Made by a program: the position numbers and the translations under genes | Part shown: positions 10,693 through 44,166 of the stretch, in pieces | Layout: the number at the start of each line of letters is the position of its first letter | Numbering within the stretch: position 1 is the stretch's first letter | Notes under the pieces: generated by a model | The model's database searches: none | The model's input: the letters and a program-made list of their open reading frames with translations, nothing else | Told to the model about the DNA's origin: nothing | NCBI RefSeq assembly: GCF_054482595.1 | Contig: NZ_CM137008.1 | Direction: 5' to 3' (one strand) | Length of the DNA: 64,000 bases

Positions 10693-11574
10693 TCATGGGG
10701 CAGCATCATTAGGAGGGTATACATTGACCGATGTACTTACACGATGAAACTCTAGTATGTTGCCAGTATGGTGACCAGGGATAGCTTCAAACACCCCAAG
10801 AAATCGGTACAGTGTCCTGTTCAACTCATCACGAGAATGTGCCATAACAATTCGTTTATCCCAGCGTTCTGTGTATCCCTCATCATCCTTTATATTCCGC
10901 TCTATGATTTTGTTACCATCATCAGTCAATTCATTTCCCCAATCTGAATTTCCATATAGTTTTGGAAACCAAACCATGCATTTTCCTGATAGACCCATTG
11001 CTTCACTTATGTGAGAAGGAATGCTCCAACCGCCAGACTGATGATGTCCTTTGTTGTAACCGAAACAGTTCAAAGCATCCCGGTGGTATCTGAAGACGGC
11101 ATCTGGACCTACAGATATCCTTCCTGCCTTAAGATGAGGACGAGCTGTATATTTATTATCATAATCCCATTCTTTGAATTTTTTATCTTTAATCATTCTA
11201 TTTTTACGATTGCGTATCAACTCAATAAATTCATTGATATAACGATCGAAAATTTCAAGACTTATTTCGCTGGCGGGAATTCTTTTCTCTAAAAATCCTG
11301 TAACTTCAGTAATATCCATACGACGTTTCGCATCATCTATTTGTGATTGCTCACTGTTGTGATGCCCTTCATCAATTTCAAGATAAAGTTCCAGTTGTGG
11401 GAAAAATAAATCTGCCAAATAGATTTTTCCATTTTCTTTTCTGACACATTGCTGGCAGACAAATTCAATGTCGGGATCATTTAAAAGATGATAAATGCGA
11501 GTTACTGCATAATGTTCCCATCGTTTTTTTGAGGTTTTCGTAAGTGAACGTAGGATGTAATCAGTTTTATCCAT
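10693..11574 (-). CDS. Hypothetical protein, 293 aa, AT-rich, inside the satellite-like island
   Basis: Clean ORF; ELYLEIDEGHH and C-terminal KRIVMAH (Rx4H-like) motifs noted but no confident family assignment. Confidence 0.55.
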   Translation of the reverse strand: MDKTDYILRSLTKTSKKRWEHYAVTRIYHLLNDPDIEFVCQQCVRKENGKIYLADLFFPQLELYLEIDEGHHNSEQSQIDDAKRRMDITEVTGFLEKRIPASEISLEIFDRYINEFIELIRNRKNRMIKDKKFKEWDYDNKYTARPHLKAGRISVGPDAVFRYHRDALNCFGYNKGHHQSGGWSIPSHISEAMGLSGKCMVWFPKLYGNSDWGNELTDDGNKIIERNIKDDEGYTERWDKRIVMAHSRDELNRTLYRFLGVFEAIPGHHTGNILEFHRVSTSVNVYPPNDAAP

Positions 11575-11845
11575 TTATATGCCTTCCTTCTTTGTTCTTC
11601 ATGTAATGTGCTTTTTCTTATGGCGATAGTGTTACCTATCGCCATAAGATGCGTTAGTATTTTTTTAATCTAACTGTTTATACTGTTAACTTCGATGATT
11701 TTCTATTTTATATCATGTGGTTAAGCGGTGGTGAGTTGGTGAGGAGTGAAAAGTCGAATCTTCCCCTTTGTGATTTTTGCTCGTTCTGGATCTGCCCGGT
11801 CAGGCGATGTGGTGGGGGGGGGTAAAAAGTTTTTTTAGGTTTTAC

Positions 11846-11937
11846 TGTTCACACTGTTCACCTCTGGTTTTTTATTAATAATTTCATGGTGATACAGGGT
11901 GAAGATACGGTGAAGGGTGAACAGTGGATTGTTCACC
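11846..11937. repeat. Iteron cluster of TGTTCACC octamers in both orientations (P4 ori/crr-like alpha-binding repeats)
   Basis: Full octamers or close variants at 11846-11853, 11855-11862, 11916-11923 (GGTGAACA) and 11930-11937, plus partial GGTGAAG copies at about 11898 and 11909; the last two form a palindrome GGTGAACAgtggatTGTTCACC. Confidence 0.6.
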
Positions 11938-11989
11938 TTGTGGCAATGGCCAGAAAGGAAAAGACCGGCTGTTGCCGGTCTGAGTGAGG

Positions 11990-12565
11990 TTATGTTGCTA
12001 CGGGTTCGTCGCATTTCGGTAGCCAGTCGCCGTAGCTTTCCTCTTTCAGCGACAGATTGGTTTGTATCCCCTGCTTAGTGTGCCGCTTCTCATAATTCAG
12101 GCCGTACTCTTTCAGCATCATGGGCAGCCCCAGCCCGAACATTTTCAGGCTGAGTACGTTCCTATACCCGTTAGCCTCCATATAGGCCAGATACGCGTGA
12201 TAGAGATATTTACGATAATTACGCGGGATGATGCTGGCATTCCCCATAAACATCCCGTTGGTCTGCGGGAGCATTTCCAGATAGCCGCAAAAATCAAACG
12301 TAGGGTCAGCATCGCGCTTGATGCTGAGCGCCTCGTCGGAATTCTGCTGTGACTGGAGCAGTGCGCAGGCTGCCATCGGGTCGCTGAACTTCTGCATGAG
12401 CTGGCGCACAATCACGGCCAGCTCGCGCGCAATTTTATCCCTGAGCTGCGGGTCGCGTTCCTCCGGCGCAATTTGCTCCGGGAAGTGAATAATCACCCGG
12501 CGACGTGACACACCACCGCTGCGGTCGGTGAAGCGCATGGGGTTATTGTTCACTGCCAGAATCAC
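11990..12565 (-). pseudogene. Truncated primase/helicase (P4 alpha-like, D5/SF3 family) C-terminal remnant
   Basis: Frame stays open upstream to about 12670 without a start codon (…LKAITGGDAVSVDPKYQNPYSTHIPAVILAVNNNPMRFTDRSGGVSRRRVIIHF…); far shorter than an intact alpha (~770 aa). Confidence 0.5.
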
Positions 12566-12722
12566 CGCCGGAATGTGTGTTGAGTACGGGTTCTGGTATT
12601 TCGGGTCAACCGAGACCGCATCGCCGCCGGTGATGGCCTTAAGCCCTGCGCCGTCACCGCCGCCGCGTAAAGTACAGGGCTGCTACAGCTCGCCGTTCCG
12701 GCATTAATCAGGAGAGAGACTC

Positions 12723-13289
12723 GTGACCACTGTGACCATACAGCAGGCCTTTGAGGCCTGTCAGACGAACAAAAATACCTGGCTGAAACGTAAAGCCGAA
12801 CTGGCAGACCTTGAACGGGAATACCGTGAACAGCTCCTTGCCGGTGACGAACAAATCCCGCGCAGAATGCAGGATTTGCGCGACAATTTCGACGTGAAAA
12901 AATGGGAGATTAATCAGGCCGCCGGTCGTTATATCCGCTCACATGAGGAAGTGCAGCACATCAGCATCCGCAACCGGCTCCATGACTTTATGCAGTAGCA
13001 CGGCGCGGAGCTGGCCGCCACGCTGGCACCTGAGCTGATGGGGTATAACGAACAGCTTCCCGCAGTAAAACAGAGCGCCATGCAGCACTCGGTTGATTAT
13101 CTGCGTGAAGCCCTGTCGGTATGGCTGGCTGCAGGTGAAAAAATTAATTATTCCGCGCAGGACAGCGATATTTTAACGGCCATCGGATTCAGGCCTGATG
13201 CGGCCTCGCGGGATGATAATCGCCAGAAATTCACCCCGGCACAGAACCTGATTTACACCCGCCGACGTGCAGAACTGGCCGCACGGTAG
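12723..13289 (+). pseudogene. psu: psu-like (P4 polarity suppression protein) gene with one in-frame TAG at 12999..13001
   Basis: ORFs 12723..12998 and 13038..13289 are in the same frame separated by a single amber; N-terminus MTTVTIQQAFEACQTNKNTW resembles recalled P4 Psu; combined length 188 codons. Confidence 0.55.
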
Positions 13290-13690
13290 CACGCAAAAAA
13301 ATCCGCAAAATTCCGCTATTTTTTCCGAAAAAAGCCATGCATCCATAAGGTGCATGGTTTTTCATGCAAATCCCCGTATTTTATTTTCCTCACCGCGCCA
13401 GTACCGGCGCGGCCTGAGCCGGTTCATGCACCTGCATTAAAAGCGACCTCTTAAGCGGGCAGGCGTGGCGGGGAGAGCATTGCGCGCGGAGTGGGTGTTT
13501 TATTTTTTGTATGTCACATAAACTTAAGGTATGCAGTACGTAGCTAGTTTCACTAATACTGGGACGAAAAGAATGGTGCGTTTGTAAAAATGTATTTTAA
13601 TTTTTGGATTGTGATACAGAGTAAATTTCATTTAATTTTGTATTTTAATTGCGGTAAGCTATAACAAACTTGAAAAGGAATTATAATCAC

Positions 13691-15352
13691 ATGAGGTATG
13701 TTGAAAATATGAAAATTCTAGTAACTGCACCTTCAAGAAAAAATCACCCAAAAAATAATGTATTGTATGATTTTATATTGCAACAAGATGATTGGAATGA
13801 TTTTAGTTTTATCACTAAGTATCATTTATACATTACAACGAAACTTACTGGTCTTGATGAAATAGAGTATGCTGGGGTTGTTAAAATTATAAAAAAAGAT
13901 CAGTCTGAAGCTGATTACTACATGGTTGAAGAAGGCGAGTTTTCATATTTGAGTGACGAGTTTTGTTCTGTGGGACAATCTCTTGATTATTATGGGAGGC
14001 TCTCTGAATTGGGGAGTGAAATTTGTGAGGGGATATTGACATCATTACGCGACATTAATATGTTTGATTATGTTTCTGAGGGTTTCAAAAATGAAAGAGC
14101 TTGGGAACGTTCTATCATGAGAGACTTAAATAATGATGATGATATTTTTATTCTTCCAAAGTTTATAATAAAAAATCAGTTCTCGGCTATACCTAGTATA
14201 GACATGAAGTTTTCATTTATGTATTCAGGAATGATTAATACTCTTTCGTTTGATTTCGATTCAATACAATATGGATATTTTGAAAGTGAAAAACTACCAT
14301 GTAGAATGTCCGTAATTGTAGGCCGGAACGGTTGTGGGAAGAGTACAACATTGGCAAGACTTTCTAGGGTTGCTTATTCTTCAACTCAGGACAGAAAAAA
14401 AGAACAGATAGCCAAAATTGGTGAAATTCTTCCAGAGGGATTAGGTTTTCCGAAAATAATCAACCTTTCATACAGTGCTTTTGATAGTTTTCAAATACCC
14501 GGGTGTACTTTTAAAGAAAAGAAACAGCTAAGGCAAGACATACTTGATGGGAAAGGTAGGTATATATATTGCGGAGTCAGGGATGTTGGTGCTGAATTGG
14601 ATTATGTATTGGCTAATGTAGATGAAAACAATATGGATATAGAGTTTATTACATTAGATAGGCAAGAGAGAACCATATTAAAACCTCTTGAAGTACTTAG
14701 TGAAGAGTTTTATGGTGTCTTGATAAAAATACATAAAGATAGTGATAAGTGGAATTTGTTTAATAAAGTGATGATGAAGTTGAGAGAAGAGGTTTCATTA
14801 TCTGAAATTATTGATGAAATCTTTAAAGATGATTTTATTCTTAAATCTAAAGAATATTTTCATAGGTTGAGTACAGGGCATAAATTTGTTTTGCATTCGA
14901 TGGCGCATATTTTGTTGTATATTGAAAAAAGATGCCTTGTTTTATTTGATGAGCCTGAAACTCATTTGCACCCGCCATTGCTTGCGGTTTTAATGAGCGC
15001 TCTGAGAATTGTTTTGAACGAAGTCGATGCTTTTGCTATTGTTGCTACTCATTCACCTGTGGTAGTACAAGAAACATTAAGTAAAAATGTTAATGTTATA
15101 ACTAGAAATGGGGAGTTTACTGATTTTCAACGACCTGAAATTGAAACTTTTGGTGAGAATATTGGAGCAATAACATCATCAGTATTTTCATTAACGACTC
15201 AAATAACTGATTATCATGATGAATTAGACAAGCTAATAATAGAATATAAAAATAATAATAATCCATTAGATGACATTGAAAAATGTTTTGATACAGGTCT
15301 TAGTACACAAGCAAGGTCTTATGTAATATCTAAATTAGCGGTAAAAGGATAA
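13691..15352 (+). CDS. ABC-type (AAA_15/AAA_21-like, SMC/RecF/OLD superfamily) ATPase with ~190-aa N-terminal extension; PtuA-like candidate defence ATPase
   Basis: Walker A VGRNGCGKST, signature-like LSTGHK, Walker B LVLFDEPETHLHP, H-loop ATHSP. AAAGGAA SD before ATG 13691; alternative starts TTG 13670 and ATG 13709. Strongly AT-rich. Confidence 0.8.
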   Translation: MRYVENMKILVTAPSRKNHPKNNVLYDFILQQDDWNDFSFITKYHLYITTKLTGLDEIEYAGVVKIIKKDQSEADYYMVEEGEFSYLSDEFCSVGQSLDYYGRLSELGSEICEGILTSLRDINMFDYVSEGFKNERAWERSIMRDLNNDDDIFILPKFIIKNQFSAIPSIDMKFSFMYSGMINTLSFDFDSIQYGYFESEKLPCRMSVIVGRNGCGKSTTLARLSRVAYSSTQDRKKEQIAKIGEILPEGLGFPKIINLSYSAFDSFQIPGCTFKEKKQLRQDILDGKGRYIYCGVRDVGAELDYVLANVDENNMDIEFITLDRQERTILKPLEVLSEEFYGVLIKIHKDSDKWNLFNKVMMKLREEVSLSEIIDEIFKDDFILKSKEYFHRLSTGHKFVLHSMAHILLYIEKRCLVLFDEPETHLHPPLLAVLMSALRIVLNEVDAFAIVATHSPVVVQETLSKNVNVITRNGEFTDFQRPEIETFGENIGAITSSVFSLTTQITDYHDELDKLIIEYKNNNNPLDDIEKCFDTGLSTQARSYVISKLAVKG

Positions 15353-15357
15353 TACAT

Positions 15358-16203
15358 ATGTGGACACTACCTTTACCAGATGATGCGGATAGAATGAGCG
15401 AGTTATTAACCGCTTTAACGTATAAAAATGGAAATCCTAAGTATGCTTTAACACAAGATGAAAAGGATAAAATTGAAACTATTTATACTTTATATCACGA
15501 TCGTAAAGCAACTCCCTGTGCTGAATTTTTAGCAGAGGAAATAAGTGATGAAACCCAAAATGCTATAAAAACAGCTTATTCAGAAGTGCAAATAAATGGA
15601 CGGCTTTCAACCCTTCGCTCAAGGATTTTATTAAGTTCTAAAAAATGCCCATTATGTGGGATCGAATCATCAACCGACCTAGATCATTATCTTCCCGAAT
15701 CAATATATAAATGTCTCGCAGTATATTCAAGAAACCTGATACCGACCTGTCATAAGTGCAATAATAAAAAAAGAGCTGGTGTAGCAGAAAATGGAGTTGG
15801 ATTTATTCATGTGTATTATTTTGATGAGCCCGATGGTGTATTTTTCGTTGCCAATACTGAAATGATAGATGGTGCTTTAGTAATTGATTTTAATATCAAT
15901 ATGATCGAGGGTATGACTCGAGAGGTATATGATTCATTATGCTTTCAAAATAGAGTTGTTAACCTAAATGAAAGGTTAAAGATGGAAGCGAATGATTTTT
16001 TAGGGGGGCTCTATACTTCACTTGAAGAAACATATAATTCTGCAGGCCAAGAAGGATTAAGATTATTTCTAAAAAGAACTAGGGATGACTATACCAGACG
16101 TTATGGGCTTAATCATTGGAGAAGAGCATTGATAGATAGTCTATCCGATAATGTGGAGTTCCTTGACGCTGGTTTTATTACTGCCTTAGGAACTCCAGAG
16201 TGA
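15358..16203 (+). CDS. HNH endonuclease-fold protein, 281 aa; PtuB-like candidate defence nuclease
   Basis: HNH motif KKCPLCG…DLDHYLPES…N…CHKCNNKK; starts 5 nt after the ATPase stop with AAAGGA SD (translational coupling); ends 2 nt before the convergent integrase. Confidence 0.8.
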   Translation: MWTLPLPDDADRMSELLTALTYKNGNPKYALTQDEKDKIETIYTLYHDRKATPCAEFLAEEISDETQNAIKTAYSEVQINGRLSTLRSRILLSSKKCPLCGIESSTDLDHYLPESIYKCLAVYSRNLIPTCHKCNNKKRAGVAENGVGFIHVYYFDEPDGVFFVANTEMIDGALVIDFNINMIEGMTREVYDSLCFQNRVVNLNERLKMEANDFLGGLYTSLEETYNSAGQEGLRLFLKRTRDDYTRRYGLNHWRRALIDSLSDNVEFLDAGFITALGTPE

Positions 16204-16205
16204 GT

Positions 16206-17399
16206 TTACTGGTGGGGATGAATATGTCGTCCCCACCAATTCATCAATTCAATTCTTGCGTGTAAATATGTTGAGCGATTGTAGGCTTTTCGTACTTCAT
16301 TTCTATCTGAATGAGCAAGAGCAGCCTCAATTACATCAGCATTAAAACCGGCTTCATTCATTGCCGTACTTGCAATCGAACGTAAACCATGTGCAACCAA
16401 TTTCCCACCATAACCTATTCGCTTAAGTGCAGCATTGGCAGTTTGGCTATTCATAGGTTGTTTTGGATTATTTCTGCTGGGAAAAACATGTTCTCGATGT
16501 GCACTAATAGGTTTCATCACATCCAGAATTTCTAATGCTTGTGGTGATAAAGGAACAATGTGTTCACGCTTAGCCTTCATTCGTTCGGCGGGAATCGTCC
16601 AGAGTTTGGCATTGAGATCGATCTCTACCCACCGAGCACCAGAAGCCTCAGAAGGGCGCACTAGGGTCAGAAGCTGCCATTCAATAAGACAGCGAGTCGG
16701 AACAGACAGATTCGACATGACCAGGGAACGCATAAGCTTAGGTAATTCTTCTGGCCGTAGCGTGGGCATATTTTGCTTTTTGGGTTTCTCAAAAGCCATT
16801 CCTACACCCGAAGCCGGGTTGGCATCTATCAGACCGGTATTAACCGCATAAATCATTATTTCGTTAATACGCTGAACTAGGCGACGAACCGTCTCTAATG
16901 CGCCACGTGCTTTGATTGGCTCCAATGCTTCAACAATCGTTCTGGCCTTTATATCCTGAACGGGCATCGCACCGATTGCCGGGAACACGTCTTTATCCAA
17001 AGAACGCCAAATATCCTTTGCATAATCCTCTGTGACACTTCTGCTTTTAATCTGGAACCAGTTAGCGGCCACAGTTGAGAAAATGCTGTCTAACTCAATC
17101 TGGCGTTGTGCTGACGCTTGCTCCTGTTGCTGTTGTGGATCCATGCCTTGCGCGAGCGTGGTTAAGTGCTGGTCGCGTATCTGACGAGCTGCTGCGAGTG
17201 TAAGGGCAGGGTATGAGCCGAGACTCAAATTTGTGCGGCTGCTGCTTCCCGGTCGTTGATAACGGAAGCGTCAGAGTTTTTTACCGGAGGTTTTGACGAG
17301 TAAGAACAGGCCATCACCATCATGCAGGGTGAAGTCTTTTTCGCGGGGTTTCGCTTTGAGGATTTCGTTGTTAGTGAGGGGGCGTGTAATGCGCGCCAT
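16206..17399 (-). pseudogene. intA: P4-family tyrosine integrase (intA-like) interrupted by an in-frame TGA after codon 42
   Basis: N-terminus MARITRPLTNNEILKAKPREKDFTLHDGDGLFLLVKTSGKKL, then TGA (complement 17271..17273), then the same frame continues RFRYQRPGSSSRTNLSLGSYPALT… into the 340-aa ORF. Confidence 0.8.
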
Positions 17400-17582: not shown

Positions 17583-17945
17583 TGGTGGAGCTGGCGGGAG
17601 TTGAACCCGCGTCCGAAATTCCTACGTCCTCGGTACTACATGCTTAGTCAGTCTTTACATTCGCTTGCCAGCTGCGGACGGACACGCCACTAACAAACTA
17701 GCCTGATTAAGTTTTAACGCTTCAACCCCAGGCAGGGCCTCCACGCGATCTCTTTTGGGTTTGACCTCTCTTGATCCCCGTCCTAAGAGCGGAGGCTAGG
17801 GAGAGAGGGCTCTAAGCAGGTTATTAAGCTGCTAAAGCGTAGTTTTCGTCGTTTGCGACTATTTTTTGCGGCTTTTTACGAGGCCAACCGCCCCTCGGCA
17901 TGCACCTTGGGTTTCGCAAATCCCGTCGAATCCAGAATCAGCCCC
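17583..17945 (-). ncRNA. ssrA: tmRNA (SsrA), 363 nt
   Basis: Reverse complement begins GGGGCTGATTCTGGATTCGACGGG and ends …GGTTCAACTCCCGCCAGCTCCACCA, with the tag-coding region between. Confidence 0.95.
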
Positions 17946-34521: not shown

Positions 34522-35682
34522 TCAGGTTGGATCAACAGGCACTACGTTCTCACTTGGGTAACAGCCCAATACCTTCATTGAACGGGTGATTTCCCCTAAC
34601 TCTTTCAATGCTTTTTGCATTTCCGCTGATTCAAGATTGGCCTGAATATCCAGATAAAACATCTCTTCCCATGGATTACCGTGAATCGGGCGTGATTCCA
34701 GACGGGTCATAATCAGATTGTGGTTGCGCAGTACCAGCAACGCTTCAACCAGCGCACCGGCTTGTTGCCCGGTCGCCATTAACAACGTCGTTTTCGCCGG
34801 AACCTGATCAGACACGTTAATGGCTTTACGCGCCAACACCACAAATCGGGTGAAGTTTTGTCGCTGATTCGCTTCAATCCGCTCCAGTACCTGCAAACCG
34901 TACAAAGTGCCGCCAGCTTCGCTTCCCAACGCAGCAACATGCGGTGATTTTGCCTGTGCAACCTTTTCCATTGCCGCAGACGTACTTTCGGTATATTCAA
35001 TCTTCCAGTGCGGATAACGATTAAGGAATTTGCTGCATTGCTGGAATGGCTGCGGATGGCTGTAGACCGTATTGATGGTGGATAAATCAGTCGTGCCGGA
35101 GACTAACAAACAATGGTCGATAGTTAACGTCATCTCGCCAACAATCGACAAGCTGGTATGTTGCAGCAGATCGTAAACGTCATTTATGGCACCGGAGCTG
35201 GTATTTTCAATCGGTACGACGGCATAGTCGGCCTGGCCGGTTTCCACCTGATTAAAAATATCGGCAAATTTGGCGCAGCCACTTTCAATGAATTGCTCAA
35301 AGTGACGCGCAGCATACTGGCGCGCCGCAAGATGGGAATAAGAACCTTTGGGGCCGAGAAAAGCGATGCGTGCTGAGTGCGGATTAATTTTATTGAGATG
35401 TTGTTGGAGCAAAGCCTGCTGAGTTAATACGGAATCTTCAATGATGAGCTGGAACAGGCGAGTAATGTAATGGGCGTCCAGATGGTGCGCTTTACCGAGC
35501 GTAATTAATCTTTCCAGTAAATCGCGTTCACGATCAATATCACGTACCGGGCGATGCGAGAGCAGTTTGGCTTTTCCCACCTCGACGGCCAGTTCGCGCC
35601 GCTCTGCGAGTAATGCTAATAATTTTTCATCCAGCGCGCTGATTTTCTCTCGCAGCGCCAGTAACGGGTTTTCCGATGTCAT
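34522..35682 (-). CDS. pheA: Chorismate mutase / prephenate dehydratase PheA
   Basis: 386 aa [29 protein letters not shown]…. Confidence 0.95.
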
Positions 35683-35703
35683 AGTGTTGCCTTTTTGTTA
35701 TCA

Positions 35704-35734
35704 ATAAAAAAGGCCCCCCGATTTGGGAGGCCTT
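35704..35734 (-). terminator. pheA attenuator terminator
   Basis: Minus strand AAGGCCTCCCAAATCGGGGGGCCTTTTTTATTG between pheL and pheA. Confidence 0.8.
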
Positions 35735-35780
35735 ATTGTTCGTCTTCGCATTCTGTTTCACACGACGAAACGCCTCCCAT

Positions 35781-35828
35781 TCAGGGGAAGGTAAAAAAGA
35801 ATGCGAAGAAAAACGGTGTATGTTTCAT
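35781..35828 (-). CDS. pheL: phe operon leader peptide (15 aa, 7 Phe)
   Basis: ATG AAA CAT ACA CCG TTT TTC TTC GCA TTC TTT TTT ACC TTC CCC TGA = [15 protein letters not shown]. Confidence 0.85.
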   Translation of the reverse strand: [15 protein letters not shown]

Positions 35829-35882
35829 GTTTGTTTCCTTAAGTGACTTTAGTACAGTACCCGTACTGTTTTCACGCTGTCA

Positions 35883-35910
35883 ACAAAAAACGCGCCCGAA
35901 GGCGCGTTGG
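35883..35910 (-). terminator. raiA terminator
   Basis: Minus strand AACGCGCCttcgGGCGCGTTTTTT. Confidence 0.7.
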
Positions 35911-35931
35911 CGATACACTCAATATAAAGGA

Positions 35932-36327
<396 letters not shown>

Positions 36328-43973: not shown

Positions 43974-44166
43974 CTTGCTGGTTTGTGAGTGAAAGTCGCC
44001 GACCTTAATATCTCAAAACTCATCTTCGGGTGATGTTTGAGATATTTGCTCTTTAAAAATCTGGATCAAGCTGAAAATTGAAACACTGAACAACGAGAGT
44101 TGTTCGTGAGTCTCTCAAATTTTCGCAACACGATGATGAATCGAAAGAAACATCTTCGGGTTGTGA

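Follow-up and report, generated by a model that had tools for sequence, protein, structure and literature searches.

The window, by which we mean the whole 64,000-nucleotide stretch of contig NZ_CM137008.1 (RefSeq assembly GCF_054482595.1) analysed here, contains the leader gene pheL and the biosynthetic gene that it precedes, pheA. Translation of both strands identified pheL as an ORF at 35781-35828, on the minus strand, encoding a leader peptide of 15 residues. Read from 35828 to 35781, the codons are ATG AAA CAT ACA CCG TTT TTC TTC GCA TTC TTT TTT ACC TTC CCC TGA. Phenylalanine is specified by 7 of the 15 codons, in the layout FFF-A-FFF-T-F, and the ORF is short with runs of Phe codons. The 3' end, ACC TTC CCC TGA, carries the UUC_CCC_UGA sequence of enterobacterial pheL group A (PMC3082878). 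The window gene also shares the Pro at position -10 and the Phe codon layout of this group, and no difference from it was found. In the near-identical strain SM107, an ORF at the same coordinates is annotated as pheL (WP_001386991.1). A first-pass annotation, made from the DNA letters, had listed codons, peptide and coordinates that agree with our minus-strand translation, but left the strand unnamed. The plus-strand reading of the same interval was rejected because it translates to nonsense (SGEGKKECEEKRCMFH).

The regulated gene, pheA, encodes chorismate mutase/prephenate dehydratase and occupies 34522-35682, also on the minus strand. Its coordinates are identical in the SM107 annotation. 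The pheA ATG, at 35682, is 98 nt downstream of pheL, which has its stop at 35781. On the other side, raiA (35932-36273) is upstream of pheL. The raiA terminator (35889-35908, minus strand), consisting of an 8-bp stem and a T run, is the upstream boundary of the pheL-pheA transcription unit. The sequence TTGACA, at 35878-35883 on the minus strand, is a candidate -35 element of the pheA promoter and is followed by TACTGT 18 nt downstream. Note that this pair was recognised by inspection; a sigma-70 consensus scan of 35600-36000 called no promoter.

In K-12 MG1655, pheL begins ATG AAA CAC ATA CCG, encoding MKHIP. The K-12 peptide quoted in the first-pass annotation is the one encoded by the MG1655 sequence. 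Two bases differ between the window and K-12. The first, at 35820, is in codon 3 (35820-35822, minus strand) and is synonymous; His is encoded by CAC in K-12 and by CAT in the window. The second, at 35818, is in codon 4 (35817-35819, minus strand), which is ATA (Ile) in K-12 and ACA (Thr) in the window. These are the 2 substitutions in 301 nt. The K-12 product (WP_010723158.1, 'phe operon leader peptide') shares with the window its locus, its length, the Phe codons, the UUC CCC UGA ending, the attenuator sequence and the predicted fold.

Structure of the attenuator RNA

The Phe leader attenuator model of Rfam (Phe_leader, RF01859) matches the minus strand at 35704-35829 across its full length, with model positions 1-125 of 125 aligned. 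The match scores 133 bits, where the gathering score is 55 (E = 6e-25), and all helices of the model are present. Because of this full-length match, and because pheA lies downstream, the pheL ORF is not a chance occurrence.

The long 1:2 helix, which acts as the pause and anti-antiterminator structure, spans 35738-35814 (minus strand) in the minimum free energy (MFE) structures and in the Rfam structure line. It begins after codon 5, and the variable bases at 35818 and 35820 are unpaired in the predicted MFE fold. Similarly, the Rfam structure has both bases within its unpaired 5' tail, 5' of all attenuator helices. The intrinsic terminator (3:4), at 35704-35734 on the minus strand, is located between the leader ORF and pheA. 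Its stem of 10 bp (35734-35710) includes 7 G-C pairs and is followed by a U tract. An antiterminator (2:3; 35724-35779, minus strand) was predicted when segment 1 was omitted from the fold, to mimic ribosome stalling at the Phe codons. In this fold, UGGGAGGC (35779-35772) pairs with GCCUCCCA (35731-35724) and the energy is -23.3 kcal/mol (z = -4.25). The predicted antiterminator would sequester the 5' arm of the terminator, such that the two structures should be mutually exclusive.

The window and K-12 leaders have the same MFE structure and the same energy, -51.7 kcal/mol. Since the predicted fold and energy are unchanged, we rejected the idea that the two base differences from K-12 have an effect on RNA structure.

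The established mechanism at pheL starts with translation of the 15-codon leader by a ribosome. If Phe-tRNA is ample, the ribosome reaches the UGA codon, helices 1:2 and 3:4 form, and transcription ends before pheA. If Phe-tRNA is scarce, the ribosome halts at the seven Phe codons and covers segment 1. With segment 1 masked, segment 2 pairs with segment 3, no terminator forms, and pheA is transcribed. Phe-dependent control of pheA transcription is known in K-12 (literature cited in PMC3082878). We conclude that the locus is, very probably, the ordinary textbook pheL-pheA transcription attenuator of E. coli, with the commonest leader peptide allele (Thr4). That the Phe control codons and the attenuator are intact had already been claimed in the first-pass annotation; the full-length Rfam match and the K-12-identical predicted folds bear this out.

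Alleles of pheL in E. coli

Three pheL alleles are present in an alignment of seven strains. At codons 3 and 4, these read CAC ACA, CAC ATA and CAT ACA. Allele counts were obtained as exact matches to 61-mers centred on the site, and about 363 of the 5,422 genomes fall outside all three exact queries. The CAC ACA (His-Thr) 61-mer is found in 3,651 of the 5,422 complete E. coli genomes. The equivalent 61-mer for CAC ATA (His-Ile), the K-12 allele, is found in 1,383 of the 5,422, a number inflated by many re-sequenced laboratory derivatives of K-12. An 81-mer with CAT ACA, the window allele, has exact matches in 25 of 5,425 genomes. According to these exact-match counts, at least 68% of complete E. 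coli genomes encode Thr4.

The Thr4 peptide is in RefSeq as WP_001386991.1 ('pheA operon leader peptide PheL') and is annotated in XH990, O157:H7 9234, Z0117EC0005, NRZ14408 and SM107. All 15 residues are identical to those encoded by the window, while in the window DNA the usual CAC at His3 is replaced by CAT. The XH990 gene, listed under the same accession, is identical to window pheL in both protein and DNA. The Ile4 peptide (WP_010723158.1) is annotated in K-12 and EcN_Sk. A full-text literature search with either peptide string returned no papers.

Thr4 is already known, being in RefSeq, and is ordinary for E. coli. The first-pass annotation had described Thr4 as a strain variant, a view to be given up if reference pheL sequences also encoded Thr at this position. 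They do so, as WP_001386991.1 illustrates (in O157:H7, for example). Moreover, Thr4 is the majority allele on the above counts, 3,651 against 1,383, and is also the state of the outgroups (see below). The description as a strain variant does not hold.

Two further observations concern the leaders of individual strains. First, E. coli MSI001 (NZ_CP076645.1) has a more unusual pheL variant, WP_216684335.1. The changes in this gene include TTT TTC to TTT TCC, which converts a control Phe to Ser, and ACC to ATC. In MSI001, a phage integrase gene is upstream of pheL, at the usual place of raiA. Second, O157:H7 9234 has GAAGAAGAAC at column 129 of alignment A1, where the others have GAAGACGAAC. This column lies in the long 1:2 helix, on its 3' side.

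Variation of residues 3 and 4 across species

We searched the genomes of species representatives for ATGAAA-NNNNNN-CCN with the conserved codons after it. The pattern matched 112 species, a set without an E. coli representative, E. fergusonii or Salmonella. Note that the pattern left no freedom for change elsewhere in the peptide, and the scan is informative on variation at positions 3 and 4 alone. Thr4 is present in all four of the Escherichia representatives recovered. Codons 3 and 4 are CAT ACT in E. albertii and CAC ACA in Escherichia sp. MOD1-EC7003 (both MKHT), and CAA ACG in E. whittamii and Escherichia sp. E1V33 (both MKQT). Because all four other Escherichia species recovered carry Thr4, we infer that Thr4 is ancestral in the genus and that the Ile4 of K-12 is derived, by a change of ACA to ATA.

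Residue 4 is Leu in 33 of the 112 species, Val in 26, Thr in 26, Phe in 10, Ile in 9, Gln in 6, Ser in 1 and His in 1. In total, 21 codons are used. At residue 3, there are 12 different amino acids. Residues 3 and 4 of pheL are hypervariable across enterobacterial species. A catalogue of 53 unique pheL genes was compiled by Gurvich et al. 2011 (PMC3082878). In the UUC_CCC_UGA group, all pheL codons vary among enterobacteria except for the initiator and the Phe codons (PMC3082878). The same study measured +1 frameshifting in constructs and found wild-type levels in those that kept, of the wild-type codons, only the three preceding CCC_UGA. The sole upstream position with an effect was Pro at -10, and this effect was 2-fold. 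Changes in pheL frameshifting had no influence on pheA expression (PMC3082878).

Codons 3 and 4 would be essentially free to drift in identity, because both precede the control codons and all the helices. The Thr4 allele is almost certainly neutral, judging from the sequence comparisons. A neutral reading had been put forward in the first-pass annotation, and the identical predicted folds and full-length Rfam match favour it; Thr4 is most likely a neutral natural allele. It carries little biological weight, since it is in RefSeq, is found in roughly two of every three complete E. coli genomes, and occupies a position that appears to drift freely across Enterobacterales. What the comparison does illustrate is that the consensus of the species cannot be read from K-12. 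At codon 4 of pheL, K-12 has a minority state that is apparently derived. As a lesson in method, a difference from K-12 should be compared with the population before it is named a variant.

AUA is a rare codon and is decoded by the minor tRNA-Ile2. The Thr4/Ile4 polymorphism might be functional. Briefly, the K-12 AUA codon would need the scarce, lysidine-modified tRNA-Ile2, and ACA, free of this requirement, would shift the set-point of attenuation. The proposed route is that AUA delays the leader ribosome shortly after initiation and so alters the speed with which paused polymerase is released. Some of our data fit such a role. ATA at codon 4 is confined to the K-12-type allele and was found in none of the 112 other species representatives. 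Furthermore, both alleles have appreciable frequency in E. coli, and strains that share an allele can be unrelated, as are K-12 and EcN_Sk, both with Ile4. However, residue 4, for which the species use 8 amino acids and 21 codons, has no sign of constraint. Codon 4 is also outside every helix, and the folds predicted for window and K-12 are identical. The one translational phenotype that has been measured, frameshifting, stayed at wild-type levels when the N-terminal part of PheL was scrambled, and changes in frameshifting were without effect on pheA expression (PMC3082878). On balance, we consider a functional role for the polymorphism very unlikely. In a more specific form, the K-12-type AUA would make the timing of leader translation, and with it the set-point of pheA attenuation, dependent on the supply of tRNA-Ile2, and the ancestral ACA would be independent of this supply; this we regard as highly improbable. 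A small kinetic difference in leader translation, due to the K-12 ATA codon, is possible.

The window also encodes a tRNA with anticodon CAT, at 2593-2668 on the plus strand. ARAGORN assigns it as tRNA-Met, and the RefSeq annotation of near-identical SM107 as tRNA-Ile. Presumably, this tRNA is the lysidine-modified AUA reader and would decode the ATA at codon 4 of K-12 pheL.

Origin of the window and K-12 alleles

In the majority allele, CAC ACA belongs to an (AC)4 run, AAACACACACCG. This allele is probably that of the common ancestor. If so, the K-12 (CAC ATA) and window (CAT ACA) alleles would each have arisen from CAC ACA by one independent C to T transition, at different positions. As CAC ACA is a single transition from each, the two-base difference between window and K-12 would result from two independent one-step changes away from the common ancestor. 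The only differences are two bases just 2 nt apart, and a single two-base event could also be envisaged, in which the window allele was derived from the K-12 allele, for example by movement of a CA dinucleotide (CACATA to CATACA). We consider this extremely improbable. Each of the other alleles differs from CAC ACA by exactly one transition, and a single step is more parsimonious than two. In addition, CAC ACA is present in Escherichia sp. MOD1-EC7003.

The rare synonymous codon and the local haplotype

With Thr4 shared by most E. coli, the only uncommon feature of window pheL is the silent change of His3 from CAC to CAT, which the first-pass annotation overlooked. Most E. coli, including K-12, have CAC at this codon. 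The 25 genomes with the CAT 81-mer are from humans, pigs, chickens, one duck, one otter and water. At least 16 of the 25 are also among the best matches to the window over 24 kb, at 99.4-100% identity. Because these CAT genomes, at least 16 in number, are the nearest relatives of the window over 24 kb, we conclude that CAT was inherited with the local haplotype. The strain closest to the window haplotype is SM107. Silent His3 CAT could mark a local haplotype of the SM107/XH990/Santai type. The short AC-repeat context of the site (AAACACACACCG in the majority allele) might raise the suspicion that CAT ACA is an error of sequencing or assembly within a (CA)n-like run and that the true sequence is a common allele, but this reading is effectively refuted and has a negligible probability, given that 25 complete genomes, sequenced independently, share this 81-mer, that at least 16 of them are the nearest relatives over 24 kb, indicating inheritance, and that the alleles differ by substitutions, without change in length.

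The window is collinear with SM107 (NZ_CP130667.1, 1295557-1359556). In the first 50 kb there are 12 mismatches and no indels, and none of the 12 mismatches is in pheL. Differences between the window and SM107 are at 36154 (in raiA), 12591, 12888, 14792, 28254, 28387, 29121, 42039, 43998-44002 and 44097. Four of the differences are clustered in the 16S-23S spacer, just after tRNA-Glu. SM107 has a different RaiA accession, and a RaiA variant in the window was suspected for this reason. We rejected this possibility because window RaiA is 100% identical to that of K-12. The accession unique to SM107 is explained by a single SM107-specific base at 36154.

Other features of the window

A decayed P4-like satellite, at 10693-17399, adjoins ssrA (tmRNA, 17583-17945, minus strand). 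Its integrase gene (16206-17399) is interrupted by an internal stop, psu (12723-13289) is a pseudogene, and the primase gene (11990-12658) is a fragment. Three of its genes are of defence type and apparently intact. The first encodes an ATPase (13691-15352) that matches PADLOC PDC-M01A/PtuA (E = 1e-99). The second encodes an HNH protein (15358-16203) that matches PDC-M01B (E = 3e-37). The third, at 10693-11574, encodes a methyl-directed type II restriction enzyme of the mREase_II/AbaSI family (E = 4e-122). Elsewhere, yfiE, which encodes a LysR-family regulator, is a frameshifted pseudogene in the SM107 annotation, at a position equivalent to about 58029-58909 (plus strand) in the window.
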